A DNA stretch of 64,000 nucleotides from an uncultured Verrucomicrobiota bacterium (GTDB lineage: Bacteria > Verrucomicrobiota > Kiritimatiellia > RFP12 > UBA1067): NCBI GenBank assembly GCA_946613265.1, contig CAMOFK010000003.1:24790-88789 (forward strand), read 5' to 3'. The notes beneath the pieces are model-generated. The model saw only the letters and a list, made by a program, of their open reading frames with translations, made no database searches and had not been told where the DNA came from. Positions 1 through 20,120 of this stretch are shown piece after piece (within the stretch, counting starts at the first letter, position 1; each line of letters begins with the position of its first letter). A program made the translations under genes and the position numbers.

Positions 1-795
1 GCGCTTCCCGGCGCGCTCGCCGGTGATCACGACGGAAGAGCCTCCGGCGTCGATGTACCCGGTCTTCAGGCCATCGACTTCCTGGACTTTCACGCCGCGC
101 CGCCAAGAGCGGTAGTCTTTGTTGAGCAGGTTGTTGTGGTTCGAAATCGCGACTTCCACGCCCTTCGAACCGGCTACTTTCGCATACGGCAGCGACGTGT
201 ATTCGAGAAGCTGCGGCTGTTCGGAAACTATCGCCGCGCCCAGCTTCGCGAGATCCGCCGCCGTGGATTTGTCGAATCCTCTGGCGGAGCCGCGCGGCGG
301 AGGAAGGCCGTTTGGCGATGCATATACCGTGGAAGTCATGCCCAGGAGGCGCGCTTCCTCGTTCATGCGCTCCACAAACGCCTCTACCGAGCCGGCGACG
401 CATTCGGCTATCGCCATGGAAATATCATTGGCGCTCTTGAGCATTATCGCCTTCAAGGCATCGTCGATCGACATCGACTCGCCCGGCAGCAGGCCTATCC
501 GCGAAGGCTCTTCGCGCGCGGAGCGCTTGGATTGCACGATCCTCGCGTCTCTGGCGATCTTCCCTTCGGCGACCGCTTTCAGCAGCAGCCGCGCCGTCAT
601 CAACTTCGTGCACGAAGCGGGATAGCACTCGCGATCGGCGGCGTCCGAACAAAGCACGTGGCCGTTCGACGCATCTATGGCTATGGCGCCGACATACGGA
701 GAGCGGCGGTGCTCCAGCTGCGCGGCGTCCGCAACCGCCGGCGCAAGCATTGCCGCGGCCAACGCCGCGGCGCAGATTATGCGTACCTTGAACAT
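1..795 (-). CDS. D-alanyl-D-alanine carboxypeptidase (S11 serine peptidase), C-terminal part cut by window edge
   Basis: Absent from the ORF track because it runs off the window. ATG at 795 on the minus strand, frame open to nt 1. Translation starts MFKVRIICAAALAAAMLAPAVADA (signal peptide) and contains YPASCTKLMTA (SxxK active-site motif). Confidence 0.75.
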   Translation of the reverse strand, partial: MFKVRIICAAALAAAMLAPAVADAAQLEHRRSPYVGAIAIDASNGHVLCSDAADRECYPASCTKLMTARLLLKAVAEGKIARDARIVQSKRSAREEPSRIGLLPGESMSIDDALKAIMLKSANDISMAIAECVAGSVEAFVERMNEEARLLGMTSTVYASPNGLPPPRGSARGFDKSTAADLAKLGAAIVSEQPQLLEYTSLPYAKVAGSKGVEVAISNHNNLLNKDYRSWRRGVKVQEVDGLKTGYIDAGGSSVVITGERAGKR

Positions 796-950
796 TTACA
801 ATTGAATATCTGTGTCTTCAAAGCCCGGCGCGCTTCGCCGGCGATAGGGCGCGGGGGATCCCGGCATGTCGCGCCGCGGCAGCCGCCGGTGGACGCCGCG
901 GACCTTGCGAACGCGGCAGACGCCAGGCGGCGGCGGCAAAGCGCCGCTGG

Positions 951-1784
951 CTATTTGACGAACGACCTTGTCTGCTTGACGAGCACGCGCCACAATGCCG
1001 CAGGCGTCTGCGCCTCGCGCATCGCCTCCAGCGCGTCTCCCTTCTTGAACGCGCTCACCATGTCCGCGAGCAGCCGCAGATAGAATGCGGAGACCGCCAC
1101 AGGAATGGCAGAAAGCACTACGACCTGGACTTTGTTCTTGCCGTCCCAGTCGATCGGCTCTTTGCATACGCCCACGGCGAACGTCAAGCCGCCGCCCTCC
1201 ACGCCGCGCACGTGCGGGAAAGCGAGCGCGCTGCCTTCCATCGCCGTTGTCAAAATCGCCTCGCGCTCGAGCGCCGCGCGCGTCAGCGCCTCCGCGCTGG
1301 ATATGTAATGGCCCTTTTCAAGCGCCGCGGAAAGCATCGCTATCGCCTCTTCGCGCGTCCGCGCCTCGAGCGCGGGGATCATCAATTCTTCCGCGCTGAA
1401 GCGCGAGACGCCGGTGCGCACGTCGTCGCGATCCGGCTTTTCGGTCACGTTGCGCACTGTGTCGGCGTCGTCGGCGAAGAGGATTCTCCCGCAGCTCGAG
1501 CATGTCACGAGATGCTGGCCGAGGCGCACTTGCTGCGCCTGCGCAATCGGCACCTGCATGCCGCAGACGGCGCAATTGCCGTCCGTCATCGCAGACATGA
1601 CGATCAGGCTGCGCTTGGAGAGCCGCTCGTAGATGCCTGCGACTTGCGGGTTGAGCTGGTCGCGGAGCGCGAAAATCTGGTCGTTGAGATCGTCGATCTT
1701 GCTGCCGTCGCCGGTCTTGTGGTGTTCCTCGCGGATGAGCACCAGCTCCTGTATCTGGCGCAAAATGTTCAACTGCCCCTTCAT
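951..1784 (-). CDS. Zinc-ribbon/coiled-coil domain fused to PTS EIIA-2 (PtsN-like) domain protein
   Basis: ORF 951-2222 trimmed to ATG 1784 (ATGA overlap with upstream stop). The N-terminus has a coiled coil plus CAVCG...CSSCG. The C-terminus (AFPHVRGVEGGG...VVVLSAIP) resembles the EIIA(Ntr) fold with its His. Confidence 0.6.
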   Translation of the reverse strand: MKGQLNILRQIQELVLIREEHHKTGDGSKIDDLNDQIFALRDQLNPQVAGIYERLSKRSLIVMSAMTDGNCAVCGMQVPIAQAQQVRLGQHLVTCSSCGRILFADDADTVRNVTEKPDRDDVRTGVSRFSAEELMIPALEARTREEAIAMLSAALEKGHYISSAEALTRAALEREAILTTAMEGSALAFPHVRGVEGGGLTFAVGVCKEPIDWDGKNKVQVVVLSAIPVAVSAFYLRLLADMVSAFKKGDALEAMREAQTPAALWRVLVKQTRSFVK

Positions 1785-2152
1785 GCCTGCATCTCCTTCT
1801 CCTGGGTGTACGAGCGGATCTTGTCCAAGGTTTCTGCTGAAAGTATGTGTTCCATCAAGCATGCGTCCTTGTCGGCCGTCTTCGCGCTGACGCCGAGCTT
1901 TACAAGGAACGTCCTGATGAGGTTGTGACGGTTGAGAACCGAGCCGGCCGCGCGGCGCCCCGCGGCCGTCAAGACTATCGGTCCGTATGGCTCCTGGCTG
2001 ACAAGCTCGAGCTTCTTCAGTTCGTGGATCGCCTTGACGACGCTTGGCATCTTCACGTTGAGGCGGAAGGCGACATCGCGAACGCATGCGTTGCCCACCT
2101 CCTTGGAGATGACATATATCGCCTCGAGATAATCTTCGAGACTCTGGGTCAT
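1781..2152 (-). CDS. DtxR/MntR-family metal-dependent transcriptional regulator
   Basis: ORF 1781-2305 trimmed to ATG 2152. MTQSLEDYLEAIY...VRDVAFRLNVKMPSVVKAIHELKKLELV matches the MntR/DtxR N-terminal wHTH. Alternative start at 2176. Confidence 0.75.
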   Translation of the reverse strand: MTQSLEDYLEAIYVISKEVGNACVRDVAFRLNVKMPSVVKAIHELKKLELVSQEPYGPIVLTAAGRRAAGSVLNRHNLIRTFLVKLGVSAKTADKDACLMEHILSAETLDKIRSYTQEKEMQA

Positions 2153-2301
2153 TTGCTGGCCTGGAGCTGTTTTCATGGCGAAGGACGGCATATGGCGTTT
2201 GGTGGAAGATTGCGCCGGACATCTCCGGCGCGCGGCTCGAACTGTTGTTTGGTGCGTGCGTGGCGAATGCCTTTCTGCCGTTCGCCGTCGAATTTGTCCT
2301 G

Positions 2302-3372
2302 TCACTTTCCGAAGGGGCTGGTCTTCTTCATCAGATGCGAGAACTTCACCGCATCCATCGCGTCCTCCAGCGTGAGCGGGAACTGCGCCGCGACGCGCAC
2401 GGTCTCGTAGATGCGCTCCCAGAACGCGCTCAGCCCATGATGCGTCGAAGGCGCGAGCGAGACGGGGAATCTCGCGACGGGGATGTCTTCATGCATATCG
2501 GCTATGCCGGGAGTGCGCACGCTGGAGCGCCGGCGCGAGAACTTGTAGTCGGGATCGATCACGACCAGCTCGCCCTTGGAGCAGCCGGGCTGCACTCTGA
2601 AAACCCCGCGATCGCCGCGCAGTTCGAAAGACGGCCCGCGGTTTTCAGGCAGCACGCCGCCGTTGAACTCTATCTCCGCGGAAACATGCGAGCGCGTCTT
2701 CAGCGAAACGTGGGCGAAATCCTCGGCATCCCCGAGCGACGCCACACGTTTCAAGTCGCTCCACATCTGCACGGGCGGACCGGGCAGAAGCTTCAGCGCC
2801 TGGAGGACGAGATCGGGCATCGCGTAGTACGCGGCGCCGCCGCCTAGCCGCTTCACGGTCTGCCAATCGTCGCGGCGCACGAAATCTTCGCAGCGAATGC
2901 GGATTTCATAGATGTCGCCAAGGCGCGGCTCGGACATCATCTGCCGGGCGAGAAGAAAGTCGGGCGCGAAAAATCCACGCTGCACCACGAGCAGGCGGTT
3001 CTTCGCCTTCTGGGCGGCGCCGCGCAGAATCTGCATATCGTCCGGAGAAAGCGCGACGGGCGATTCCACGAGCGTCCACACGCCTCTTTCCAGGCTCTTC
3101 ATGGCGTGTTCGACATGGTCGCGCGAGCATGTCGCGACGACGACGAGATCGATATCAGGCTCGTCGAGCATGTCGCCGTACTGGCGGAACATCTTGCAGT
3201 CCGGGAAATCCGCCTCTATCCTGTCGCGCCGCTCCTTTACTATGTCGCAAGCGGCGACGATTTTGAACAGCGCGCTATGTTCGCGGAGTATGGGATAGTG
3301 TTCACAGAAGAGTGCGCGCCCCAAACCCATGAGCGCAACTCTGATCGGCGGCCGGTGGAACTCTGCGCTCAT
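2302..3372 (-). CDS. Gfo/Idh/MocA-family oxidoreductase
   Basis: ORF 2302-3807 trimmed to ATG 3372 (ATGA overlap with nrdR stop). Has the PIRVALMGLGRA Rossmann N-terminus and the typical family length of 356 aa. Confidence 0.65.
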   Translation of the reverse strand: MSAEFHRPPIRVALMGLGRALFCEHYPILREHSALFKIVAACDIVKERRDRIEADFPDCKMFRQYGDMLDEPDIDLVVVATCSRDHVEHAMKSLERGVWTLVESPVALSPDDMQILRGAAQKAKNRLLVVQRGFFAPDFLLARQMMSEPRLGDIYEIRIRCEDFVRRDDWQTVKRLGGGAAYYAMPDLVLQALKLLPGPPVQMWSDLKRVASLGDAEDFAHVSLKTRSHVSAEIEFNGGVLPENRGPSFELRGDRGVFRVQPGCSKGELVVIDPDYKFSRRRSSVRTPGIADMHEDIPVARFPVSLAPSTHHGLSAFWERIYETVRVAAQFPLTLEDAMDAVKFSHLMKKTSPFGK

Positions 3373-3812
3373 TTCTTCACTATCTCCGTTATCACCGACA
3401 GGAACTGCGCGACATCGGTGAATTTTCGATATACGCTCGCGAAACGTATATAGGCTACTTCGTCTGTCTTGTGGAGCTGATCCATGACCAGCTCGGCGAT
3501 GCGGTCGCTGCCGATTTCGCCAGGTTCGAGGGCGTTGACGACATTGTCTATCATCGTCCTGATTTGATCGTCGCTGATCGGACGCTTGCCGCACGCGCGG
3601 CGTATCGACGCGTCGATTTTCTGCCTGTCGAAAATCTGGCGCTTGCCCGTGCGCTTCACGACGATGAGTTCGTCTCTCTCCACTTCCTCGTAGGTGGTGA
3701 AGCGATGCCCGCATCCAAGGCACTCGCGACGGCGGCGTATCGCCGCGCCATCGCGCGCCGTCCGGGAATCTAGAACCTTGTCGCCGGTCTGGCCGCAATT
3801 CGGGCACTTCAC
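3369..3812 (-). CDS. nrdR: Transcriptional repressor NrdR
   Basis: GTG at 3812 (GTGA overlap with rnfE stop). VKCPNCGQTGDKVLDSR...IRRRRECLGCGHRFTTYE zinc ribbon followed by an ATP-cone. Confidence 0.9.
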   Translation of the reverse strand: MKCPNCGQTGDKVLDSRTARDGAAIRRRRECLGCGHRFTTYEEVERDELIVVKRTGKRQIFDRQKIDASIRRACGKRPISDDQIRTMIDNVVNALEPGEIGSDRIAELVMDQLHKTDEVAYIRFASVYRKFTDVAQFLSVITEIVKK

Positions 3813-4534
3813 TTTTTCATCTCCGTGGCAGGTGCGGGGGCCGTCGCGGCCGCCGCAGGCTTGCCGGCCGGGCACAGCGTGCAATGGCGGCAATCGAGGT
3901 TGATGGGAAGCGGCGCGCTCGCGCCGTGCCGCCGGGCGTTCCATTCTCCGATTCTATTTATCGCCGCGAGGAGGAGGCCAAGCGTGATGAAGCCGCCGGC
4001 CGGCAGGATCGCCAGCGTCACCGCGCCGGGATTTATGCCTTTCACGGCGACATCCCCCCAGACCGTCAGCGATCCGGAGCCGACGATTTCGCGCACGGTC
4101 GCGACGAGCGAGAGCGAAAGCGTGAAGCCGACGCCGGAACCGATGCCGTCGGCGATAGAGTCGAGGACGCCATTGCGGCTTGCGAAAGCTTCGGCGCGCC
4201 CGAGGATTATGCAGTTCACGACAATCAGCGGGATAAAGATGCCGAGGCTCTCCGAAAGCGCCGGCAGATATGCCTGCATAAGCAGATCGATCGCTGTCAC
4301 GAACGTCGCGATTATAACGATATAGCACGGGATGTGGACGGCGGAGGGAATCACATTGCGCAGCGCGGAGACGAGCGCGTTGGACGCCACCAGCACGAAT
4401 GTCGCCGCCATGCCCATGCCCAGCGCGTTCTCCAGACTCGTCGTCACTGCGAGCGTGGGACACAACCCAAGAACCAGTCTGAAAATGGGATTATTCTTGA
4501 AAATCCCGCTCCAGAGTATGTACAGTCTCCTCAT
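3809..4534 (-). CDS. rnfE: RnfE/NqrD-type electron-transport complex membrane subunit, orphan, with Cys-rich C-terminal tail
   Basis: ORF 3809-4582 trimmed to ATG 4534. LGLCPTLAVTTSLENALGMG...IPLIVVNCIILGRAEAFASRN is the hallmark RnfE/NqrD core. Confidence 0.8.
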   Translation of the reverse strand: MRRLYILWSGIFKNNPIFRLVLGLCPTLAVTTSLENALGMGMAATFVLVASNALVSALRNVIPSAVHIPCYIVIIATFVTAIDLLMQAYLPALSESLGIFIPLIVVNCIILGRAEAFASRNGVLDSIADGIGSGVGFTLSLSLVATVREIVGSGSLTVWGDVAVKGINPGAVTLAILPAGGFITLGLLLAAINRIGEWNARRHGASAPLPINLDCRHCTLCPAGKPAAAATAPAPATEMKK

Positions 4535-4544
4535 AACAAAGCGT

Positions 4545-4552
4545 ATTATACA
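4545..4552 (-). promoter_or_regulatory. Extended -10 promoter element (TGTATAAT) upstream of rnfE
   Basis: The minus strand reads TGTATAAT. The hexamer ends 10 nt before ATG 4534. Confidence 0.4.
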
Positions 4553-4890
4553 CTCTTTCGGGTGCGAATGCAAGGGCACCAAGCGTATTTTTCAAGTTTT
4601 TCAACCTCCCCCCGCCAGGCCATTCAGGGCGTTTCTTGCGTCCCCGCCGCCTGGTATCCCGCGCGTCGGCGCTCTCGCATTCGCATTCGAACGCCGCCTC
4701 GCGGCGGCGGGAAACCGGGCGCAAATCCACAAAATCGCAAACCGAACCCAAGCGTCGCAGTTGAAAGGCCGCAATCGCGATTGCGACCTTATGAGAAAAA
4801 CGGGCTGCAAATGTGCAGACAATCTCGGCTCTTGGGGGCGACTGCGCCTTGCCGAAACCGCAATTTTCACCTCCTTTGACGCTTGTTCCG

Positions 4891-5037
4891 GCGACTCCGG
4901 TCGCACGGCAAGGCGACTCCAGTCGCGAGCCAAAGCGACTCCGGTCGCGAGGCAAGGCGACTCCAGTCGCGAGCCAAAGCGACTCCAGTCGCGAAGCAAG
5001 GCGACTCCAGTCGCAAAAAGGGATGACTCTAGCCGTC
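4891..5037. repeat. Tandem array, 22-bp period, 6 good + 1 degenerate units of palindrome GCGACTCCAGTCGC plus 8-nt spacer
   Basis: Units start at 4891, 4913, 4935, 4957, 4979, 5001 and 5023. Spacers are ACGGCAAG/GAGCCAAA/GAGGCAAG/GAAGCAAG. Confidence 0.95.
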
Positions 5038-5441
5038 AAGCATCGTGAACATGACCACACCAGATAGCGTTCGGGCGAAGCGGCCAAACCGAATCTTTGG
5101 AACTTTGCGTTTTCCACAGCACCCTCCCGTAACCACGTGCGCCCGCAAAAAGCTCCGACGGGGTGGTACAATACCGAATATCGCAGCGTGAACGTTGTCC
5201 GAAGCGTCGCAATCGACGCCAAACAGCGGCGACAGCACATTGTCGCCTACGCATTCCGCGAATTCGGCGCAATCCGGCAGTTGTTTCTTCCAGTTATCGG
5301 CAGCAAGACGCCCATGTCACTCGCCTGAAACGCCAATTCAACGGCATCGCAGCCATTCCTGCCCGGCAACTTTGGCTGACGGGCAGATGCGCTATTGACT
5401 TCAATTGCGATTTTCCGGCTAAAGAAAAAAGTCGCGGGCAC

Positions 5442-5471
5442 TTGCACGACATGAAGAAAATATGCTATACT
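5442..5471 (+). promoter_or_regulatory. Putative sigma70-type promoter of the tRNA cluster
   Basis: TTGCAC (5442-5447), then an 18-nt spacer, then TGcTATACT (5463-5471), about 20 nt upstream of tRNA-Gly. Confidence 0.5.
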
Positions 5472-5491
5472 ATGCGCCGTTCGTTTGCGAA

Positions 5492-5565
5492 GCGGGCGTA
5501 GCTCAATGGCAGAGCTCCAGCCTTCCAAGCTGGCTACGAGGGTTCGATTCCCTTCGCCCGCTCCA
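5492..5565 (+). tRNA. tRNA-Gly (anticodon UCC)
   Basis: Cloverleaf folded by hand: acceptor GCGGGCG/CGCCCGC, anticodon loop CTTCCAA, T-loop TTCGATT, encoded CCA. Confidence 0.9.
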
Positions 5566-5572
5566 CGGGCGG

Positions 5573-5658
5573 GCCAGAGTGGCGTAATGGCAGCCGCGGC
5601 AGACTCAAAATCTGTTGCCCGCGAGGGCGTGAGGGTTCGAGTCCCTCCTCTGGCACCA
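5573..5658 (+). tRNA. tRNA-Leu (anticodon CAA)
   Basis: Acceptor GCCAGAG/CTCTGGC, anticodon loop CTCAAAA, long variable arm, T-loop TTCGAGT, encoded CCA. Confidence 0.85.
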
Positions 5659-5684
5659 GACGCGAGGCAGACGGCAAAACTACT

Positions 5685-5774
5685 GGAGGGGTGTCCGAGT
5701 GGTCGATGGTGCAACCTTGGAAAGGTTGTGTGGGCGCAAGTCCACCGGGGGTTCGAATCCCCCCCCCTCCGCCA
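5685..5774 (+). tRNA. tRNA-Ser (anticodon GGA)
   Basis: Acceptor GGAGGGG/CCCCTCC, anticodon loop TTGGAAA, long variable arm, T-loop TTCGAAT, encoded CCA. Confidence 0.85.
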
Positions 5775-6532
5775 GTTGAAAACAGTTGCCCTTTTTCGGG
5801 GCCGCAAGGCGGGCGCAAGACGAGCGTCCGTTTTTTGTTTGCCGTGTCGCAGGCGCTCAGCGGAAGCCGAGAATTTTGTGGAGCTGCACGGAAAGCGACC
5901 AGTCCGGCAAAAGCGCCAGCGCGGCTTTCGCGCCGGCGAAATCGATTTCGCCGGCGCGCTCGCATGGCGAAACGTAGTAGTCGCCGGCGCTGATTCTCGC
6001 GCGCATGCGGCGGCAAAATGCGGCTGTCTGCTCCGGCGGCGCCGATGCCACGACGCGGACTTCGCCGGCGACCGCAATCCGCACCGAGCTTTCATACTCG
6101 ATTTTCGGCGAGCATGCAATGTAATCGACGAATGCAAGCCACGGCGCGTCGTCGATGGAGCGCGTGCCGTTTGTCTCGACGGCGATCCAGAAGCCGCGCT
6201 TCTTGAGTTCGGCGACGAGGCGATCCATGCCTTGCACGATCGTCGGCTCCCCGCCGGTCAGAATGACATTGCGGCACGAAAAGGACGAAATCTCGTCCAC
6301 AAGGCTTTCTAGGGACGCCGCGAAGCGCGCCTCTGCGGCGGTGTCGCACCACGCGCATGAAAGATTGCAGCCGGCGAAGCGCACGAATACGCACTGCCGG
6401 CCGGTGTTCCGCCCCTCTCCCTGGAGAGACTTGAAAATCTCGACGAGTTTGAATTCCATCGCCCGCCGCGCGCTCACTCGAAGCCCAGGACGTTGCGCAT
6501 CGTGTATATCCCGCACGCGCGACCCTTCGCCC
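5752..6532. repeat. 781-bp direct repeat, copy 1 (tRNA-Ser 3' end + queE + last 19 codons of dapB)
   Basis: Matches 9108-9888 at a constant offset of 3356 bp. I see only 2 mismatches (5775 G/A and 6522 A/C). Confidence 0.95.
5857..6459 (-). CDS. queE: 7-carboxy-7-deazaguanine synthase QueE (radical SAM), copy 1
   Basis: MEFKLVEIFKSLQGEGRNTGRQCVFVRFAGCNLSCAWCDT. The protein is identical to copy 2. Confidence 0.8.
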   Translation of the reverse strand: MEFKLVEIFKSLQGEGRNTGRQCVFVRFAGCNLSCAWCDTAAEARFAASLESLVDEISSFSCRNVILTGGEPTIVQGMDRLVAELKKRGFWIAVETNGTRSIDDAPWLAFVDYIACSPKIEYESSVRIAVAGEVRVVASAPPEQTAAFCRRMRARISAGDYYVSPCERAGEIDFAGAKAALALLPDWSLSVQLHKILGFR

Positions 6533-7061
6533 CCTCCGGCACGCTGATCTCGTCGGCATCTGACTTCAGCACCCAGCGGCGGAATGTCGAGTGGCTCTCT
6601 TTCGCAGCCGTCATCTCGTGGATATTGCCGGTCGCAACCCGGTAGCTTTTCTGCGCACATTGCTCAAGGACAAGCTTCGCGAGTTCGTTGGACATCGTCT
6701 GGTGCTTCTCCAACCCGCACATGAGCGCCAACGGCACGAAGATCTTTCCGCAATGCTTGCACTTCACGCGCGTGATTCTCGGCAGTTCGACGAGGCCAAG
6801 GCGCGTGCGAATCTTGCGCGGCATGCCCCCGTCGAGGATGAGGTCGGGATGCTCGCAGGTGCAGCCGCATTTCTCTGGCAACGGTTGCTTGAGCATGACT
6901 TTCAGTCTGAGGTTCTCGTCGACGAGAAGAACAATGGTCTTCAGCAGCTGGGGAAACGCCTTCTTGTTCGCAAGCTCCTCCATGCGATAAATGAACTCGT
7001 CCAGGCCGAAGCCATTTTCCGATAGCGAAACGATCAAAGATGTGGTAATATTATACTGCAT
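6474..7061 (-). pseudogene. ISLre2/UPF0236-like transposase, N-terminal ~176 codons fused in frame to the duplicated dapB 3' stub
   Basis: RKIRTRLGLVELPRITRVKCKHCGKIFVPLALMCGLEKHQTMSNELAKLV...SYRVATGNIHEMT follows the UPF0236 N-terminal pattern. The last 18 aa (AKGRACGIYTMRNVLGFE) equal the DapB C-terminus. Confidence 0.5.
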
Positions 7062-7162
7062 TTTTGGGATCCTCCTGTGTGGTAACAAGAGCATCTCAAA
7101 AATGCTTTCCTTTTTCAAGCCCCAGGAGCTGTTATTCAGCCAGAACATATGTCATTTTCCTG

Positions 7163-7192
7163 GACCTTCATCCCAGACTTTGCCACATTATC
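7163..7192. repeat. 30-bp putative IS terminal repeat (GACCTTCATCCCAGACTTTGCCACATTATC), copy 1
   Basis: Perfect match to 22895-22924. Lies about 100 bp upstream of the transposase fragment start (7061, minus strand). Confidence 0.8.
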
Positions 7193-7231
7193 TTTTTTAT
7201 ATTTTTCCATTAACCCCCAAACCCAAAAAAA

Positions 7232-7240
7232 TGATATAAT
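7232..7240 (+). promoter_or_regulatory. Extended -10 promoter (TGATATAAT), leaderless arrangement
   Basis: The hexamer ends at 7240 and the ATG is at 7248, exactly 7 nt later. Confidence 0.5.
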
Positions 7241-7247
7241 CCCCATC

Positions 7248-7841
7248 ATGATGCAATTTTCTTTTGATATTTCATACCCGGAATTTATCTCGCGATTGGA
7301 GGAGCTCGCAGCGGAAATCGTCGCGACGGAAGCCTTGCTGCCCGGAAGCATCGCCGTCCGCTCGAATAATGGCAAAACCGTAACCTCCCACTCCGTCTGC
7401 ACCTGCGAGCTGCCATTTCCATGTGCGCCCGGAGACAAACCCGCCGTCAGCAGTATCTTCAATGTTCGCCCGTGCAAGGCGAAAGCCGATGTTGGTCGCG
7501 CCATCCTGAAAATCGCCGATTTCATACATTCCGCCGCCCCCATCCCGCCAGACGCCTCGGAAGAACTCAAAATCCCGAACGCCACGTCTTCTTCACCCTA
7601 CTGGAACGTCAAGGTCAATATGGCATCACCCGATACCATCCCTTATCTCCGCGCCCTCATTCTTTTCCGTCTCGCACACTATCTCTCGGGCGCCGCGCCT
7701 TTCGGCTGCTGCGGCATGTTCAAGGAATGCTCCGACGCCAGACGCTGCATCCACCCAAACCGCCTCTATGCCACATCCTGCGCTTACCGCCACAACCTCG
7801 ACGCCGGTCGCATCTTCTACGGCAAAAACAAAAACACCTAA
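7248..7841 (+). CDS. Hypothetical Cys-rich protein
   Basis: ORF 7149-7841 trimmed to ATG 7248. The C-terminus is FGCCGMFKECSDARRCIHPNRLYATSCAYRHNLDAGRIFYGKN. I recognise no family. Confidence 0.55.
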   Translation: MMQFSFDISYPEFISRLEELAAEIVATEALLPGSIAVRSNNGKTVTSHSVCTCELPFPCAPGDKPAVSSIFNVRPCKAKADVGRAILKIADFIHSAAPIPPDASEELKIPNATSSSPYWNVKVNMASPDTIPYLRALILFRLAHYLSGAAPFGCCGMFKECSDARRCIHPNRLYATSCAYRHNLDAGRIFYGKNKNT

Positions 7842-7853
7842 GGAGCCGCCACC

Positions 7854-8996
7854 ATGCCCGAATATATCGCCCTCGATTTCGAGACTGCAAACCCACAGCG
7901 CGTCTCCGCTTGCTCTGTCGGCGGATGCGTAATTTCCAATGACCAGATAGTTGACCGCTTCTCGTCTTTCATAAAGCCGCCTACCGACTATTTTGCCCTC
8001 TCTAATGTCGCCATCCACCATATCACCCCGGACATGGTCGCCGACGCCCCTACCTTCGCAGACCTCTTCCCTCGCTTTTGCTCCCGCGTCAATCATCGCA
8101 CCGTCATTTCCTATACCAGGTTCGACCTAACGGTCATAGAGTCCCTCTTCAGCTACTTCGGCCTGTCCGCCCCATTCAAGTATGTCGATGTCTGCGCCCT
8201 CGCAAGGGAAAAACTGCCTCAACTCCCAAACCACCGACTCCCTACTGTCGCCGCCGCACTCGGTCTAGGTTCGTTCAACCACCACGACGCTTCTGCCGAC
8301 GCCGAAATGTGCGCCCGCGTCTTCCTCGCCCTTCGGAAACTCCCGCAGAATAGTGCAAAAACCCGCCGCCGCCCCATCGCTAATGCGTTCTCCGATTATA
8401 TCGATTCTGTCCTTGATGACGGAGTTGTCGATGTCAAGGAGGTGGTCGAGCTCCGCTGCTTTCTCGATGTCCTGCCACCTTGCCAACCCCTCGATGACCT
8501 AGCCACCCAACTCGATGCCGCCCTCGCCGACGGCGTTATTACCCAAGACGAATCAAACTCCATCGCCGATTCTCTCAGCGCTGTTCGGGCTATCGCACAC
8601 AATATCTTCGACTCTGAACCACGCCAGCCCACGCCTCGCTCGATTCCGCCAAAGAGCAAACCTCGCTTCGTCACCCTCAAGCCCTCCGACGTCACCCATT
8701 CCGCCCCTGCCGACTCCATTGATCCCAACAATCCGCTCTATGGGAAAACGGTCGTCTTTACCGGAGAACTCTCAGGCCTCTCGCGCGAAAAAGCGTGGCA
8801 GACTGTTGTCGATCTCGGCGGCAAAGCCGCCAACGGCGTCACTCGCTCCACCGATTTCCTCGTCATCGGATACACCGGCGAATACGGCGTCACATCCAAA
8901 CAGAAGATGGCCGAACGCTACATCCAGCAAGGTCGCCCAATCTCTATCATTGATGAATCGGAATTCCTTAGGTTGACAGCCGCCGGCGAACAATAA
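7854..8996 (+). CDS. DEDDh (DnaQ-like) 3'-5' exonuclease fused to C-terminal BRCT domain
   Basis: AAGGAG Shine-Dalgarno 9 nt upstream. YIALDFETAN (Exo I)...HHDASADAEMCARVF (Exo III). C-terminal BRCT-like stretch GKTVVFTGELSGLSREKAWQTVVDLGGKAANGVTRSTDFLVIG. Confidence 0.75.
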   Translation: MPEYIALDFETANPQRVSACSVGGCVISNDQIVDRFSSFIKPPTDYFALSNVAIHHITPDMVADAPTFADLFPRFCSRVNHRTVISYTRFDLTVIESLFSYFGLSAPFKYVDVCALAREKLPQLPNHRLPTVAAALGLGSFNHHDASADAEMCARVFLALRKLPQNSAKTRRRPIANAFSDYIDSVLDDGVVDVKEVVELRCFLDVLPPCQPLDDLATQLDAALADGVITQDESNSIADSLSAVRAIAHNIFDSEPRQPTPRSIPPKSKPRFVTLKPSDVTHSAPADSIDPNNPLYGKTVVFTGELSGLSREKAWQTVVDLGGKAANGVTRSTDFLVIGYTGEYGVTSKQKMAERYIQQGRPISIIDESEFLRLTAAGEQ

Positions 8997-9107
8997 ATGT
9001 GTCAGAGGGAATTTGTGACCAAAGGTGTGACTAATCAACAATTCGGCAAATATGTTAAAGTCCCAAAACACCCAACAAAACCAGTGTATGACAAAGCAAG
9101 CCGTTTT

Positions 9108-9888
9108 TTCGAATCCCCCCCCCTCCGCCAATTGAAAACAGTTGCCCTTTTTCGGGGCCGCAAGGCGGGCGCAAGACGAGCGTCCGTTTTTTGTTTGCCG
9201 TGTCGCAGGCGCTCAGCGGAAGCCGAGAATTTTGTGGAGCTGCACGGAAAGCGACCAGTCCGGCAAAAGCGCCAGCGCGGCTTTCGCGCCGGCGAAATCG
9301 ATTTCGCCGGCGCGCTCGCATGGCGAAACGTAGTAGTCGCCGGCGCTGATTCTCGCGCGCATGCGGCGGCAAAATGCGGCTGTCTGCTCCGGCGGCGCCG
9401 ATGCCACGACGCGGACTTCGCCGGCGACCGCAATCCGCACCGAGCTTTCATACTCGATTTTCGGCGAGCATGCAATGTAATCGACGAATGCAAGCCACGG
9501 CGCGTCGTCGATGGAGCGCGTGCCGTTTGTCTCGACGGCGATCCAGAAGCCGCGCTTCTTGAGTTCGGCGACGAGGCGATCCATGCCTTGCACGATCGTC
9601 GGCTCCCCGCCGGTCAGAATGACATTGCGGCACGAAAAGGACGAAATCTCGTCCACAAGGCTTTCTAGGGACGCCGCGAAGCGCGCCTCTGCGGCGGTGT
9701 CGCACCACGCGCATGAAAGATTGCAGCCGGCGAAGCGCACGAATACGCACTGCCGGCCGGTGTTCCGCCCCTCTCCCTGGAGAGACTTGAAAATCTCGAC
9801 GAGTTTGAATTCCATCGCCCGCCGCGCGCTCACTCGAAGCCCAGGACGTTGCGCATCGTGTATATCCCGCACGCGCGCCCCTTCGCCC
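9108..9888. repeat. 781-bp direct repeat, copy 2 (23-nt tRNA-Ser 3' fragment + queE + dapB 3' end)
   Basis: See copy 1. This copy continues into intact dapB. Confidence 0.95.
9213..9815 (-). CDS. queE: 7-carboxy-7-deazaguanine synthase QueE, copy 2
   Basis: Identical 200-aa translation to copy 1. Lies 14 nt downstream of the dapB stop. Confidence 0.8.
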   Translation of the reverse strand: MEFKLVEIFKSLQGEGRNTGRQCVFVRFAGCNLSCAWCDTAAEARFAASLESLVDEISSFSCRNVILTGGEPTIVQGMDRLVAELKKRGFWIAVETNGTRSIDDAPWLAFVDYIACSPKIEYESSVRIAVAGEVRVVASAPPEQTAAFCRRMRARISAGDYYVSPCERAGEIDFAGAKAALALLPDWSLSVQLHKILGFR

Positions 9889-10561
9889 ACTTCACCGCGG
9901 CCAGCGCGCCGGCGGCGAACGCTTCGCGAGTCTGCGCGCGGTGCGCAAGCTCGATCCGCTCGACATCGCCCGCGAACATCACGACATGGTCGCCGACGAC
10001 GGAGCCGCCGCGAAGAGCGTGTATGGCGATTTCCCCCTGCGGGCGCTCGCCAATATCGCCGCGCCGCCCGTAAATCGTGCTTGCGTCGAAATCCTGCCCC
10101 CTGCCGGCGGCGACGGCTTTCGCGAGCATCAGCGCCGTGCCGGAAGGAGCGTCCTTCTTGTGCCGGTGGTGCATTTCGACGACTTCGACATCGTAAGCGG
10201 CGCCAAGCGCCGCAGCCGTCCTGCGCGTCAGCTCCAGCAGCAGATTTATGCCGAGCGAATAATTGCCGCTCTGCACGACGGGGATTTTCGCGGCCGCGGC
10301 ATCGACGGCGGCCTGCTCGCCGGCGTCGAGGCCCGTGGTGCCCAGGACGTACGCAATACCCTGCGCCGCCGCCTTCGCGATGGCTTGCGGCACGGCGCTA
10401 TGATGGGAAAAATCGACAATCCCCTCTGCATCCGCCGGCCAGTCGCTATCGAAACCTGGCGCGACATCCACCTTGGCGACGACCTCCAGACCCATGGAAG
10501 GCGCGAGCGCCGCGAGCATTTTCCCCATCCTGCCCGCCGCACCGACAATAGCAATCTTCAT
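9830..10561 (-). CDS. dapB: 4-hydroxy-tetrahydrodipicolinate reductase
   Basis: MKIAIVGAAGRMGK...VEMHHRHKKDAPSGTA...GGSVVGDH are hallmark DapB motifs. Confidence 0.9.
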   Translation of the reverse strand: MKIAIVGAAGRMGKMLAALAPSMGLEVVAKVDVAPGFDSDWPADAEGIVDFSHHSAVPQAIAKAAAQGIAYVLGTTGLDAGEQAAVDAAAAKIPVVQSGNYSLGINLLLELTRRTAAALGAAYDVEVVEMHHRHKKDAPSGTALMLAKAVAAGRGQDFDASTIYGRRGDIGERPQGEIAIHALRGGSVVGDHVVMFAGDVERIELAHRAQTREAFAAGALAAVKWAKGRACGIYTMRNVLGFE

Positions 10562-11107
10562 TTACCTTGTTCCTCCGTTCGCCTTGGCGAGTTTCTTTAG
10601 CTTCGCGGCGTATTTGAGCCTTTCCACGGCCGTCATGCGATCTATATACAGAACGCCGTCGAGATGGTCAAGCTCATGCTGTATGGCGCGCGCGAGATAG
10701 CCGCGCGCGGTGATCATCTGGTTGCGGCCGTCGATATCGACATACTGGCACGTCACTTCGGCGGCGCGCACGAGCGACCCGCCAATGCCGGGGAAGCTCA
10801 AGCAGCCTTCCTTGTCATCCTGAGAACCTTCGCGAGACACGATCTCCGGATTGAATAGGACGAGCGGCATGGCTATCGGCGCATTGAAAGCGCGGTCTTC
10901 CTCGTTCTCGCACTTCGCGGGAACATCGATGACGCAAAGGCGCTCCAGCCTCCCGACCTGCTGCGCGGCGAGCCCGACGCCGTTGGCGGCATCCATCGTC
11001 TCCAGCATATCGGCGGCGAGCGCGCGCATCGCCTCCGAGACGGCGGCGACGGGGCGCGCCTTCTCGCGCAACACCTTCTCGCCGTATTTGCAAATCTTCA
11101 AAATCAT
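10562..11107 (-). CDS. def: Peptide deformylase
   Basis: ORF trimmed to ATG 11107. Carries the GVGLAAQQVG, EGCLSFP and QHELDHLDG motifs. Confidence 0.9.
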   Translation of the reverse strand: MILKICKYGEKVLREKARPVAAVSEAMRALAADMLETMDAANGVGLAAQQVGRLERLCVIDVPAKCENEEDRAFNAPIAMPLVLFNPEIVSREGSQDDKEGCLSFPGIGGSLVRAAEVTCQYVDIDGRNQMITARGYLARAIQHELDHLDGVLYIDRMTAVERLKYAAKLKKLAKANGGTR

Positions 11108-11154
11108 GGCAGCGTCCTGATTGTGCGAAAGGGCCGGCGAGTCCGCCGGCCTGC

Positions 11155-11586
11155 TCACGCCCTCCCGGTAGAGCCGAAACCGCCGCACCCGCGACCGGTG
11201 GATGAAAGTTCCTCGACCTCGACGACTTCGGCGCGCGCCACGGTCGCGATCACGAGCTGCGCGATACGCTCGCCGCGCGCGATCTTGAACGCTTCCTTGC
11301 CGTGGTTTATCAGAATCACGCCGATCTCGCCGCGATAGCCAGAATCTATCGTGCCTGGCGAATTGAGGACGGTGACGCCATGCTTGAGGGCGAGGCCGCT
11401 GCGCGGCCGCACCTGCGCCTCGCAACCCTCCGGAAGCTCCATCGCGAGTCCCGTGGGGACGAGCGCGTGGCCGCCGGGCGGAAGCTCAAGCTCCGCGATG
11501 CTGCGCAAATCCATTCCCGCATCGCCCTCGCGGGCGTACGCGGGCAGGACGGCGTCGGAAGAAAGCTTTTTGAAACGTACGGTCAT
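11155..11586 (-). CDS. dut: dUTP diphosphatase
   Basis: ATG at 11586 (the track start at 11592 is TTG). Motifs [24 protein letters not shown]. Confidence 0.9.
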
Positions 11587-11676
11587 TTCCAACTGGGCGG
11601 CCGGCGGACGGCAAAGGCGCCGCGCGCCGGCGGCGTGGAAGCAAGCCGCATGGCGCGGCTTGCCGGTTCCACAATT

Positions 11677-13323
11677 TCACTCTTCGTCGCCAGCGGGCGC
11701 TTCGGTCGTCTCGTAGCCGGCGTTCGGCGCGAACTCCAGACGGGCGAGATTGGCGTCTTCCCACTTATCGACAACCGCGCGAGTCTTCTCGACATCGGCC
11801 TGCTGGCGGAGATTGCGCGCGTAGAGCATCTCCGTCGCGGCGTCTCCGGCGGTGCGGCTCTCGCAATAGACGACAAGCCCGCGCCCGGCGCCGGTGGTGA
11901 CGAGGCTGGAAAGCTCGCCGGCCTTGAGCTTCTTGGCGGCGTTGGCGATCGCTCCGGAATCCGGGAAGGAGAGGGTCTGGCGATCCGCAGGCGAGAACAC
12001 TATGTTCGTCGAAACATTGCCGCTCGCGAGGACGGCTTCGACGCCCTTGGCGATAACCTCGCCGACTTCCGCCTTGAAAGCATCGGCCTTGAGGTCGCGC
12101 AAAACCTGCGGGCCGATCTTGTCCTTCGCTTCATCGAAGCCGGGGGTGTGCGCGGGGCTCGTCTCCGCGACCTCGAAAAGCCACACGGCGCTCGCGGACG
12201 TCGCGACGTTGTAGCGCTGGTACTCGTCTTCGGGATCGATCTCGGCGACGCGCGCGGCGAAATCCCTTGCGCCCGGAGCGATGGCGCCGGGATACTGCAT
12301 GAACCCTTCGACGCGCGCGCCAGCCGGCGAGAACCAATCGCTCACGACGATACTCTCGCCTTCCTCGGCGGCGATCTTGTCGAGCCGCGAAGCCTTGGCA
12401 TCCTCGCCCTCGGCGAGATCGGCGTACGCGCGGCGCTGCAAATCCGTCGAGATCGCGTCCACGGCGGCGGCGATGCGCAGCTCGCGCTCGATGCCTTCCT
12501 TGACTTCGTCAAGCGCTTTGACGGTCTCTACGCCGTTGGTGTCGGTGGATTTGTACTTGGCGATGTTGACGTCGTAGTAGTCCTGGATGTCGTCGGCGGA
12601 AATCTCCTGCTTGGCGAGCGTCTCGGGCTTAGTGGCGTCGATCTTGATATAGCGAATCTTGACGCGCTCGGGGAGCGCGAGTTTTGCGCTGTTCGCGTCG
12701 TACCACGTCTTCAGCGCGGCGTCATCGACCGTGATGGCATTGGCCTTCGCCTTGTCCTGCGTGAAGCGGGCGACGCGCACATTGAAGGAATCCGTCTCGT
12801 CGGCGACGCGCACGTCCAGCTCCATCGGAGCCGTGAACGCGCCGGCGGCCACGAGGATGGCATGGACGCCATTGACGGCGAGGCTGCGGCGCAGGGAATT
12901 CTCGTGGCGCTCCGGCGTCAGCCCCTGCTGGGCGAGCGCCATGCGGTATGCGTCGAAATTGAATTCGCTGCGCGACATGTACGAGAACTGGTCGCGGACG
13001 ATATTGCCGAGGACCGCGTCGCTGACGACGATTCCATCGTCGTCGGCCACGCGCAGATCGGCGATGCGCTTCCACGTCTCGAGATTGATTTCCGCGTCCG
13101 TCCTGTTGCCGCGCTCGCGCCCGATGACGTCGGAGCGGATGTTGTCGAATTCGGCCGTGGAGACGTCCTTGCCGCCGAGACGGCCTGCGACGCCCTCTAC
13201 CGGGCCGTCGGCGGAGCGGCCGGTGAAAAGATCGTCGAAGCAGAAGGCGGCGGAAACGACCACCGCGAAGGCACCCCATACCCATTTGTTGCGGATGAGC
13301 TTGTTGAACTGCAGAATCACCAT
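11677..13323 (-). CDS. PpiD/SurA-N-like periplasmic chaperone, membrane anchored
   Basis: N-terminal TM segment (KWVWGAFAVVVSAAF) followed by a long SurA-N-type region. 548 aa, placed where ppiD-like genes are typically found. Confidence 0.55.
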   Translation of the reverse strand: MVILQFNKLIRNKWVWGAFAVVVSAAFCFDDLFTGRSADGPVEGVAGRLGGKDVSTAEFDNIRSDVIGRERGNRTDAEINLETWKRIADLRVADDDGIVVSDAVLGNIVRDQFSYMSRSEFNFDAYRMALAQQGLTPERHENSLRRSLAVNGVHAILVAAGAFTAPMELDVRVADETDSFNVRVARFTQDKAKANAITVDDAALKTWYDANSAKLALPERVKIRYIKIDATKPETLAKQEISADDIQDYYDVNIAKYKSTDTNGVETVKALDEVKEGIERELRIAAAVDAISTDLQRRAYADLAEGEDAKASRLDKIAAEEGESIVVSDWFSPAGARVEGFMQYPGAIAPGARDFAARVAEIDPEDEYQRYNVATSASAVWLFEVAETSPAHTPGFDEAKDKIGPQVLRDLKADAFKAEVGEVIAKGVEAVLASGNVSTNIVFSPADRQTLSFPDSGAIANAAKKLKAGELSSLVTTGAGRGLVVYCESRTAGDAATEMLYARNLRQQADVEKTRAVVDKWEDANLARLEFAPNAGYETTEAPAGDEE

Positions 13324-13466
13324 ATAGGTAACTTATCTCTTTCTTTTTTGTTTGCTTATTTTTCGCCCTCTGCTCCGTCGCCGCGCCGGCGCCTCCGGAC
13401 GATCGCTTCGCCGCATTTCGCGGCTTTCAAGCGAGGCCCGGCATGCGCCGGTACGCGCACCGCGCA

Positions 13467-14654
13467 TCAGAACTCGAAATCATCGCCTGCCGCCGGCGTG
13501 GCGGCTTTCGCATCTCCTGCCGTGTCCGTGGAAACGCCGACCGGCTCCGAAGTCGCGCCGCCGACTTCGTTTTCGATCGCGTCATCCTCGACCTCGACCT
13601 CGACATCCATGACGTCGGAAGCGGCGGCGGCGTTCTTCTTCGCCGCGTCGTCCTTCTTCTCTTCCTGCGCAACCGGGCCAAGCTCCCCGGTATTGATCTC
13701 CCCGACACCTTCGGCGAACGCGCAGCGGTTGCGCAGCGCGCCGCTCGCGTCGAATGTCATGACGCTCACGCTCATACCCTCGCCAATCGCGGGAACGGCG
13801 CGATGGATGCGGACGGCCGTCTTGGGCGAAAGCACCCACGAGAGCGTCTTCTTCTCGCTTGCGACTTCGCCGGTTTCGAAATTCTTGATCGTCAGCATGG
13901 AGCCTTGGTCGAGAATCACAGCGCTGTCGCCGCGATTCCCGTAAAGCCCGGTGAACAGCTGATCCTGCGAAGAACGGATTTTCACTTCGCAGGCCGTCTT
14001 GACTTCCGGGAATGTGAAATTGCGGCCGTTGATGCCGAACGAGCCGGTGATGCAGCGGATTTGCGCCACTTCGCCATCCACGGTCTGCTTGTAGGCATAG
14101 CGCGAGACTCCTTTCGGATTCACGACCTCGAAAAACGGGCTGACCACCTTGAACTTGCCGTCAGGCATATTGCGCGGCAGCTTGACGGCGACCACGCCGC
14201 TCTTCAGCGTCACGGTGCGCGTATCTTCTCCGAACGGCTGGAAGCGCGTGCCGAAGGACGAAGGGCCGCCTTCGATCTGCACGGAAATATCCTCTGTCTC
14301 GCCGAACTGGACTTTCAGGCGGGATGTGGGATCAGTCGTGCGGTACGTCGAGCCGAGCGGGTAGAACTTGCCCTCTTCGAGGGGTTCCCATTCGCTCGCG
14401 CCAGGCTTCAAGACTTCCGCCGCGCCGACAATGCTGCGGCAGTATGGCAGCGTCTTGAAGACGTGCGCGCCGGCGTTGCGCCCGGCCTCCTCGCCGCCGG
14501 CGGCTTCGGCATCCGGGGAAGCTTCGCCTTCCGCATTCGCCGCCGCCGCGGCTTGTTCGTTCTGGGAACCGAAATCGAAGTCGCCTTCCTGCGCAAGCGC
14601 GCAAAACGCCGCTGCGGCGCACGAAGCCGCAATCGTTCTCATGAGAATCTTCAT
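13467..14654 (-). CDS. Hypothetical secreted protein with acidic C-terminal tail
   Basis: ORF trimmed to ATG 14654. Signal peptide MKILMRTIAASCAAAAFCALAQE. No recognisable domain. Confidence 0.55.
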   Translation of the reverse strand: MKILMRTIAASCAAAAFCALAQEGDFDFGSQNEQAAAAANAEGEASPDAEAAGGEEAGRNAGAHVFKTLPYCRSIVGAAEVLKPGASEWEPLEEGKFYPLGSTYRTTDPTSRLKVQFGETEDISVQIEGGPSSFGTRFQPFGEDTRTVTLKSGVVAVKLPRNMPDGKFKVVSPFFEVVNPKGVSRYAYKQTVDGEVAQIRCITGSFGINGRNFTFPEVKTACEVKIRSSQDQLFTGLYGNRGDSAVILDQGSMLTIKNFETGEVASEKKTLSWVLSPKTAVRIHRAVPAIGEGMSVSVMTFDASGALRNRCAFAEGVGEINTGELGPVAQEEKKDDAAKKNAAAASDVMDVEVEVEDDAIENEVGGATSEPVGVSTDTAGDAKAATPAAGDDFEF

Positions 14655-14802
14655 CTTCCGCTCCTGTTGTCGATGCGACGATGGAATTTTCAACCCGGTA
14701 AATGCGCTTGCATCATTGGCGCCGCCTCCGCTTGGCCGCGCCCGGCGGATTTCCCCCGCCAGGCGGCGTGGCGCGCAACCGCAACCGCTGGCCATGAAAG
14801 CT

Positions 14803-15978: not shown

Positions 15979-16028
15979 TGCGGGAACCTTTCAAATTAAG
16001 TTGGGTGTTGCGGTGTTTGGCGTGGGCG

Positions 16029-17393: not shown

Positions 17394-17424
17394 GCTTTCT
17401 TTCCTTTTTCTTGCTTTGAGAAAT

Positions 17425-17433
17425 ATTATATCA
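17425..17433 (-). promoter_or_regulatory. Extended -10 promoter (TGATATAAT) for the MFS transporter/galK operon
   Basis: The minus strand reads TGATATAAT, about 32 nt upstream of ATG 17393. An AAGGAAAG Shine-Dalgarno lies in the leader. Confidence 0.5.
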
Positions 17434-17557
17434 TATTTCCGCGCATCCGTGGCGCGGCGGACTGGTCAAGAATAATGGAGGGCGGCAGACTCGCGATTGC
17501 CCGGCTTTGCGGCGCGGCGCGCTCCCGGCGCCGCCGCCCGTCCATCATTCGCGCGCA

Positions 17558-18415: not shown

Positions 18416-18447
18416 GATCTGTTTGCTCCTTTTGAAAGTCTTGTGGA

Positions 18448-18456
18448 ATTATACCA
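18448..18456 (-). promoter_or_regulatory. Extended -10 promoter (TGGTATAAT) for the FHA gene
   Basis: The minus strand reads TGGTATAAT. The leader is about 26 nt and carries an AAGGAG Shine-Dalgarno before ATG 18415. Confidence 0.5.
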
Positions 18457-18562
18457 TATCGCTATTCAACCGGTCAACCGTCCAGAGTGTGTTTTTCATC
18501 GCCCGCGAACGGGCGGCGGCGCGCATGGCGCGCCGGAAAAGCGCGCTATAGCTTGGTTTCCC

Positions 18563-19490: not shown

Positions 19491-19768
19491 GATTTTCGTC
19501 CCTTGCGTCAATCGCGGATGTAATGGCGCCTCGGCGCCGGCGACGCCGATGCAATAATATATATTGGCGAGGCATGACAGAACAATCCCGACTGCAAACC
19601 CGCCGGCATCGATGATGACACGGCGTGCAGCGGGCTTGTCGAGGGTTTCCAAGAGCTTTTCAACGGGTTTTGAAGAGGCTTGGAAGCGGTTTGCATCGAA
19701 GTTTGCGTGTAGCGGCATGTGGAGCGTCGAAAACTGCGAGGTGGGGATTGCAATGGGGGAAAATGATA

Positions 19769-19777: not shown

Positions 19778-19783
19778 ACTGGG

Positions 19784-20112: not shown

Positions 20113-20120
20113 GTGTTGTC

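Follow-up and report, generated by a model that had tools for sequence, protein, structure and literature searches.

A tRNA-Ser(GGA) locus with a duplicated queE segment around an integrase-less insert in an uncultured Verrucomicrobiota bacterium: a possible remnant of aberrant excision

At a tRNA-Ser(GGA) gene of an uncultured Verrucomicrobiota bacterium (GTDB lineage Bacteria; Verrucomicrobiota; Kiritimatiellia; RFP12; UBA1067), a 781-bp direct repeat brackets a 2575-bp insert, referred to here as X (6533-9107). The locus lies in contig CAMOFK010000003.1 of assembly GCA_946613265.1, of which positions 24,790 to 88,789 of the forward strand were analysed; this stretch of 64,000 nucleotides is called the window, and positions refer to it unless another sequence is named (Table 1). 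X consists of a truncated insertion sequence (IS), two cargo genes (orf197 and an exonuclease-BRCT gene) and an arm of 111 bp, and at its left edge it contributes to a chimeric open reading frame (ORF) with a fragment of dapB. An original prediction, made from the letters of the window alone, had described a 781-bp duplication with an offset of 3356 bp and two mismatches. Base-by-base comparison and a repeat search agree with it: 5752-6532 and 9108-9888 are the same sequence at a constant offset of 3356 bp, with exactly two mismatches, at 5775 (G in copy 1, A in copy 2) and at 6522 (A and C, respectively), and beyond both edges the similarity drops at once.

Table 1. Features of the tRNA-Ser(GGA) locus, and two genes of a second accessory segment, by position in the window (aa, amino acids; nt, nucleotides; att, attachment site)
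Feature	Position	Strand	Remarks
tRNA-Ser(GGA), intact	5685-5774	+	last in tRNA-Gly/Leu/Ser cluster; ARAGORN
Repeat copy 1, 781 bp	5752-6532		tRNA 3' core, terminator-like hairpin, queE, dapB 3' stub
attL-like 23-nt core, TTCGAATCCCCCCCCCTCCGCCA	5752-5774	+	3' 23 nt of intact tRNA-Ser; left end of copy 1
queE-like radical-SAM gene, copy 1, 200 aa	5857-6459	-	Pfam Radical_SAM; 3' of the chimeric ORF, not of dapB
Chimeric ORF, 195 aa	6474-7061	-	176 N-terminal ISH6-like transposase residues and last 18 dapB codons, in frame
Left junction	6532-6533		dapB joined to IS nt 661; 1 nt microhomology
Truncated IS, nt 1-661 of a 1523-bp ISH6-family-like IS	6533-7192	-	terminal inverted repeat at 7163-7192
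orf197	7248-7841	+	uncharacterised protein; invariant five-Cys C-terminal motif
Exonuclease-BRCT gene, 380 aa	7854-8996	+	DEDDh (DnaQ/RNase T-type) 3'-5' exonuclease with C-terminal BRCT; Pfam RNase_T 5e-16, BRCT 6e-5
Element arm, 111 bp	8997-9107		P-arm-like; between exonuclease gene and tRNA core
Repeat copy 2, 781 bp	9108-9888		runs on into the remainder of dapB
attR-like core, displaced 23-nt tRNA-Ser 3' fragment	9108-9130	+	opens copy 2
queE copy 2	9213-9815	-	native place downstream of dapB
dapB, intact, 243 aa	9830-10561	-	Pfam DapB_N, DapB_C
EcoRI-type adenine methyltransferase	20236-21219		in second accessory segment
GmrSD_N and HNH endonuclease	21216-22307		in second accessory segment

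The repeat starts at the first T of the tRNA-Ser T-loop (TTCGAAT), and its opening 23 nt comprise the T-loop, the 3' T-stem, the 3' acceptor strand, the discriminator base and CCA. This 23-mer occurs twice in the window, both times intact and identical, against zero occurrences expected by chance, which together with the comparison of the copies rules out a chance repeat. ARAGORN and the copy comparison agree with the predicted placement of the repeat edge in the T-loop and of a 23-nt tRNA fragment at the start of copy 2, and the right junction has the proposed form of a tRNA-type attachment (att) edge, with DNA of the element standing directly against the T-loop-to-CCA block; the 111-bp arm on the element side shows no similarity to the tRNA body. 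The tRNA gene is intact and its 3' segment is directly repeated at the far end of the insert, which is the mark of a tRNA-targeting element. When IMG/VR was searched for the 23-nt core, a single match was returned, a prophage end unrelated to X (L106, 1-3049; IMGVR_UViG_3300013232_000165). This viral contig starts inside another tRNA-Ser(GGA) with an identical 3' 28 nt, and the tRNA end is followed by G and then by a diversity-generating retroelement (reverse transcriptase and Mtd). It shows that the 3' end of tRNA-Ser(GGA) serves phages as an attachment site elsewhere, and is uninformative on X.

Gene calls and protein comparison agree with the earlier claim that each repeat copy contains a whole queE gene; the gene is complete in both, and the protein products are identical. 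Their best NCBIfam matches are QueE models, every one under its curated cut-off. A perfect 30-nt palindrome, CGCGCCGGCGAAATCGATTTCGCCGGCGCG, lies within the queE coding sequence, where it encodes ...RAGEIDFAGA..., and is present in both copies (5929-5958 and 9285-9314). The dapB stub in copy 1 had been described as the last 19 codons of the gene, which holds for the stop codon and 18 complete codons but not for the 19th; this codon contributes 2 nt only, straddles the left junction and is changed from Trp to Gly. The predicted fusion of the stub to a truncated transposase is likewise present, although its start had been placed at 7148, giving 224 aa, whereas public gene calls start it at 7061, behind AGGAGG, and give 195 aa. 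The identical ORF is called in two other assemblies of the locus (L001 and L002, introduced below). That the fusion is in frame had a prior of one in three, and a special explanation is unnecessary.

The transposase is truncated, as had been proposed, in that its 176 residues match positions 2-163 only of the 414-position ISH6-family model NF041731 (NCBIfam, E = 4.5e-36); longer relatives continue into the catalytic region. The IS fragment is 96.7% identical to a full copy from the same metagenome (L009, 9871-11393), which is frameshifted and bears terminal inverted repeats. In a three-way comparison of native dapB, this full copy and the window, the match to native dapB extends up to 6532 and that to the IS down to 6532, giving the join CGACCCTTCGCCCCCTCCGGCACGC. 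On this alignment the left junction coincides with no IS end and no att site and reads as an illegitimate join midway through the transposase gene. IS-mediated insertion and a composite transposon were rejected as origins of the insert: the IS breaks off at nt 661 of 1523 and retains a single end, and no target duplication is present. The nearest other IS fragment, a 235-bp right end at 22690-22924, lies 15 kb away. Several database proteins similar to the N-terminus of the transposase (P0008, P0019, P0072) are fused to unrelated sequence, with a ribosomal protein L4 domain and an ISL3 transposase domain among the partners; these probably result from short contigs that are fragmented or chimeric near this multi-copy IS.

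X is a foreign insert, as the original prediction held. Its GC content is 55-58%, with a GC skew of -0.3 to -0.4, against 62-68% and a skew of about zero in the flanks, and its exonuclease has no close relative among 185,579 GTDB species representatives, where identity reaches 43% at most. Outside the exonuclease's own 99% cluster, the maximum in the protein database is 62%. With relatives this distant, X is a rare accessory segment. Searches of the X proteins against Pfam, PHROGs and NCBIfam matched no integrase family and no recognisable replication gene, so that X, lacking an integrase of its own next to the att site, falls short of a self-sufficient integrative element.

The exonuclease-BRCT protein also matches phrog_192 and NCBIfam PRK06195, and orf197 has no match in Pfam, PHROG, NCBIfam or PADLOC. 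The latter belongs to an unnamed family of about 45 homologues with the invariant C-terminal motif FGCCSxFExCSDARxCxHxNxxYxxxCxYRxNLEAGRIFYGKNKNI, one of which bears a BRCT domain of its own. The AlphaFold2 model of orf197 is confident (predicted local distance difference test, pLDDT, 89; predicted template-modelling score, pTM, 0.84), with no match in the PDB and no significant one in BFVD, where the best template-modelling score is about 0.4; the weak resemblance found there is to uncharacterised Bacillus phage G proteins. The exonuclease relative of 62% identity (L051) adjoins a tyrosine integrase and has phage-like genes around it. Other orf197/exonuclease pairs, in other taxa, lie directly upstream of chromosomal ligA and not in mobile elements (L104, 3187-7098; L054, 10001-13728). 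Support for a prophage origin of the cargo is weak. The conserved pairing of an orf197-like protein with a DEDDh exonuclease near ligA may represent an undescribed accessory module of DNA repair or replication.

Other copies of the locus were retrieved by exact-protein look-ups in public assemblies. In the metagenome-assembled genome (MAG) GCA_002363575.1, one contig (L002; NCBI DEWI01000175.1; window 1-9130) carries tRNA, copy 1, IS fragment and cargo contiguously and ends exactly 23 nt into copy 2, and a second contig (L007; window 17350-9109) ends at the same repeat edge. An ENA scaffold (L001; scaffold_1235; window 6467-18996) begins with the last 66 nt of copy 1 and runs through X and a full copy 2 into dapB. 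Two Logan unitigs (L003 and L061; window 7163 to 9137 and 9145, respectively) cover the cargo and the junction between X and the core, and both break at 7163, the IS terminal repeat, which fits a multi-copy sequence. Contigs that stop at the repeat edges are what is expected of short-read assembly at a true repeat. X is present in at least five read sets or assemblies, and both of its junctions recur in NCBI, ENA and Logan assemblies, on which grounds a mis-join peculiar to the present assembly was rejected. Related genomes, to which the original prediction had pointed for comparison at tRNA-Ser, queE and dapB, include the empty site: in L004, L006 and L008, a lineage that shares 98-99% identity with the window, dapB, queE and tRNA-Ser follow one another in single copy, without X. 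A complete parent element was sought in several places. Exact-protein look-ups with the exonuclease and orf197 returned the same locus only, JGI metagenome scans gave nothing close, IMG/VR held distant relatives only and not the X arm, and phage and plasmid collections gave no match; among these sources, neither conjugation genes nor a related complete element were found.

Single-nucleotide polymorphisms (SNPs) in the repeat allow the two copies to be phased. Across the collected copies 15 columns vary (5775, 5872, 5977, 6032, 6115, 6118, 6133, 6208, 6301, 6308, 6310, 6343, 6353, 6406 and 6522), at which the alleles read GAGTTATTATTGGGA in copy 1 and AAGTTATTATTGGGC in copy 2 of the window, ATATGGCTACGAGGC in the empty-site lineage, GAGTTATTCTGAAAA in copy 1 of the MAG (L002), ATGGGGCCATTGGGC in L007 and AAGTTATTCTGAAAC in copy 2 of L001. 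At the two edges, copy 2 has the alleles of the empty-site lineage (A at 9131, C at 9878), and in every X-bearing assembly copy 1 has G at 5775 and A at 6522, neither of which is seen in that lineage. The window, L001 and the MAG phase the edge SNPs alike, with the tRNA leading into G, A into the IS, X into A, and C into dapB. This is the polarity of canonical tRNA integration, in which element-borne sequence completes the intact gene and the displaced 3' fragment keeps the native flank. Since copy 1 is foreign and copy 2 native at both edges, the exchange would have lain inside the 23-nt core, to the left of 5775, unless the pattern arose later. An exchange in the core would in turn imply site-specific recombination rather than a RecA crossover inside the 781 bp.

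Such a crossover is what the original prediction had put first: a Campbell-type, very recent insertion of a 3356-bp circle (2575 bp of cargo plus 781 bp of homology) by a single RecA-dependent exchange within the repeat. The topology fits, 781 bp is ample homology, and an integrase would be unnecessary, in line with its absence from X. A crossover between 5775 and 6522, however, would give each copy one foreign allele; instead copy 1 has both, and the empty-site alleles are both on copy 2. The stretch left of 5775, where the exchange would have to be placed, makes up only about 3% of the repeat length. Nor does the event look very recent, since at least three assemblies share the structure with different internal alleles, the L061 unitig carries a cargo variant with 12 differences in 1915 bp of cargo (0.6%), and a run of C8 instead of C9 in the core, and the MAG copies are 13 sites apart. 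We therefore consider a Campbell-type origin quite unlikely.

Between the two MAG contigs, L002 with copy 1 and L007 as the presumed copy 2, 13 of the 781 sites differ (1.7%). Eleven of these differences fall in queE, where nine are synonymous changes at third positions, and the one at 6522 is synonymous in dapB; they look like real alleles of diverged lineages and not like errors. When polarised by the empty-site lineage, nine derived changes fall on MAG copy 1 and four on L007. The interior of the window repeat is a mosaic of both MAG alleles, the same in both copies; only the edge sites differ, and these surviving differences lie 24 nt and 11 nt from the repeat edges. The near-identity of the window copies may reflect either gene conversion, under which edge sites would survive because little flanking homology remains to reach them, or the consensus of a collapsed repeat written twice, under which only variants within one k-mer of unique flank would survive. 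In about 25 kb of pairwise-compared unique sequence, the window, L001 and the MAG contigs show zero differences. All differences among these three X-bearing assemblies fall in the 781-bp repeat or in the IS fragment, where they amount to two SNP pairs (6839, 6843, 6990 and 6995; L001, L002). At 6990 and 6995, L001 has the alleles that the full-length IS of its own sample carries, a pattern that points to cross-talk between paralogues, by conversion or by assembly.

These observations bear on the possibility that the in-cis duplication, the near-identity of its copies, or both, are unreal, and that the underlying molecules are an empty site together with X and one host flank in a circle or tandem array, or a collapsed repeat written twice. 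A short-read graph would be the same for the integrated form and for circle plus empty site, the independent short-read contigs all end at repeat edges, and the two mismatches lie within one k-mer of the unique flanks. That the three assemblies differ in paralogous DNA only, with demonstrable cross-talk at 6990 and 6995, would also be accounted for. Even so, the joins between dapB and the IS and between X and the tRNA core would stay real molecules. Moreover, X, in which the domain searches above recognised no replication gene, could not have been maintained as a free circle, yet at least five data sets contain it; the agreement of the edge phasing in three assemblies fits one inherited integrated structure; and L001 reads as a single contig from X through the full copy 2 into dapB. 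For these reasons the integrated form appears favoured over an empty site with a free 3356-bp circle, and an explanation at the level of assembly seems to us very unlikely.

The history that we consider most plausible, though we hold it tentatively and at a little less than even confidence, is that X is the leftover integrase-distal end of a prophage- or island-like element that targeted the 3' end of tRNA-Ser(GGA), and that it arose through aberrant excision on the attR side. An ISH6-like IS would first have inserted beside the terminal cargo of the element, orf197 and the exonuclease-BRCT gene. A site in the middle of this IS would then have been joined to dapB, 758 bp past the att core, with 1-nt microhomology, producing a 3356-bp unit in the order IS fragment, cargo, arm, 23-bp core and host flank (queE and the 3' end of dapB). 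The topology of this unit would be of the lambda-bio type, in which the P-O-B' att site is kept, attR-side host DNA is gained and the integrase side is lost; loss of the integrase is indeed expected of aberrant excision on the attR side (bioRxiv 10.1101/2020.10.28.360172). As expected of such an excision, the captured host DNA, 758 bp of native flank, adjoins the core on a single side. The unit, presumably as a circular intermediate, would subsequently have entered the chromosome by means of an integrase supplied in trans, leaving host flank, X and host flank in succession, and the 781-bp copies would later have been homogenised by gene conversion, or merged by assemblers. Of the second route offered in the original prediction, an island that captured flanking DNA by imprecise excision and re-entered by homologous recombination, the capture thus provides the best fit, and the homologous crossover inside the 781 bp is contradicted by the SNP phasing.

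An identical final topology could also have been reached in situ, with neither a circle nor a transfer. Here a complete element at tRNA-Ser would have undergone an illegitimate exchange between sister chromosomes, dapB against IS, that duplicated IS fragment, cargo, core and host flank as a 3356-bp tandem unit; its integrase would then have removed the main element by recombining attL with the first attR, leaving tRNA, host flank, X, host flank and dapB. A microhomology of 1 nt is typical of duplication joins that are independent of RecA, the absence of an integrase from X is accounted for, and in-trans integration of an unusual att type and the transfer of a 3.4-kb molecule are both dispensed with. 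The in-situ route, however, predicts native and initially identical copies, with the native A directly after the core, whereas G is observed there, the edges of copy 1 are non-native in every X-bearing assembly, and MAG copy 1 carries nine derived differences from the empty-site outgroup. It also leaves the junction of X, core and G in L003 and L061 unpredicted unless conversion followed. On balance we regard it as unlikely.

That junction deserves separate consideration. In the Logan unitigs L003 and L061, X and the core are followed by G, and in the window and L001 by A. Over 4.9 kb, the flank in the L003 sample (SRR5323048) matches the window at 100% identity; a single clone therefore contains both states. 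X followed by core and G would be expected of the unit before integration, of a circle excised at the core or of a tandem array, and the arm, core and G followed by TTGAAAAC form the junction expected of a circle from core-specific excision. A strain in which copy 2 acquired G by conversion up to the edge could explain the observation equally well. In all, four junction combinations occur across samples, with G or A after the tRNA and A or G after X, which is suggestive, though not proof, of site-specific cycling. Were such cycling real, the 3356-bp unit would be an active, integrase-less hitch-hiker that alternates between a circle, with its junction of X, core and G, and the chromosome, and spreads among strains of this rumen species. 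It would have to borrow the integrase of a resident tRNA-Ser element, or rely on host RecA acting on the captured homology arm, and would amount to a natural 'suicide vector' whose footprint is the four junction combinations, two of them within one clone. We give this idea little credence.

Several points weigh against the excision history that we prefer. An integrase did not turn up anywhere in the 64-kb window, which makes its supply in trans pure inference. A unit of 3.4 kb is far too small for a packaged transducing genome, and no transfer route is evident. Some relatives of the cargo pair stand beside chromosomal ligA, and a prophage origin is therefore weakened. The phasing itself rests on short-read assemblies that demonstrably mix paralogous alleles, as at 6990 and 6995, and L007, which stops at the repeat edge, could derive from a clone-mate with an empty site and not from copy 2. 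Finally, the marker at 5775 is unstable within a clone, because SRR5323048 has G after X and the core despite its flank being fully identical to the window.

The proposed history has close parallels in known systems. The lambda-bio and lambda-gal specialised transducing derivatives form merodiploid 'heterogenotes'. As in these, element DNA at the present locus is illegitimately joined to host DNA past one att end, a hybrid P-O-B' att site is kept and the integrase side lost, and the recipient holds two copies of the captured host segment around the element DNA. Unlike them, the X unit measures 3.4 kb, far under any packaged phage genome, has no phage structural or regulatory genes, and has an IS copy as the internal partner of its illegitimate join; it also comes from a natural uncultured bacterium rather than from laboratory selection. 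A second parallel is the Campbell-type insertion of a non-replicating plasmid with a homology arm, as practised with laboratory suicide vectors. The succession of homology, insert and homology is the same, and loss via the direct repeats would restore the exact empty site; the locus differs in its natural origin and in the position of the exchange, which the SNP phasing assigns to the 23-bp core rather than to the arm.

Decayed elements that keep their ends offer a further comparison. Cis-mobilisable elements (CIMEs) are decayed integrative and conjugative elements (ICEs) or integrative and mobilisable elements (IMEs) that have lost their integration and transfer genes and kept attL and attR (PMC5704250). 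X resembles them structurally, as integration and transfer genes are absent and two core copies, intact and identical, lie at the tRNA 3' end, and it could be moved by the integrase of another element. CIMEs, however, are bounded by short att repeats, whereas the repeat around X reaches 758 bp into host genes; X lacks an accretion partner, and its descent from an ICE or IME would be conjectural. Remnants of tycheposons are degenerate tRNA-targeting elements that leave scattered partial tRNAs in genomic islands (bioRxiv 10.1101/2020.12.28.424599). Here too a partial tRNA beside an intact one marks an old integration, with cargo left behind without an integrase; X differs from these remnants in phylum and cargo, and duplication of downstream host genes is not reported for them.

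Elsewhere in the window, a second accessory segment at about 19657-22924 contains a methyltransferase and an endonuclease gene (Table 1) and ends in the 235-bp right-end remnant of the same ISH6-like IS mentioned above. It may be strain-specific too, since the empty-site contigs L004 and L006 stop at 19657. Just upstream of the tRNA-Gly/Leu/Ser cluster lies a tandem array (4890-5014) of 5.7 copies of the 22-bp unit GGCGACTCCAGTCGCGAGGCAA, each of which holds the palindrome GCGACTCCAGTCGC. A Logan flank contig (L108) ends near this array, at 4853, and contigs of the Rnf flank stop in the array before reaching the tRNAs.

In conclusion, the mechanism considered here is already known, and the locus is best seen as a natural instance of faulty excision capturing host DNA and not as a new system. 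For genome scans it holds a lesson: differences confined to one k-mer next to the repeat edges may reflect edge-limited conversion or the consensus of a collapsed repeat, and because of this ambiguity it is unsafe to equate near-identity with recency in MAG-derived sequence. Aberrant excision on the attR side is familiar from lambda genetics and is seldom documented in wild genomes. If the reconstruction holds, the locus would be a clean natural fossil of this process, and would illustrate that an integrative element in decay can give rise to a second copy of a host gene, rendering the cell merodiploid for queE, to a chimeric ORF and to a direct repeat. The 781-bp repeat is itself prone to recombination, which can delete X and restore a perfect empty site.

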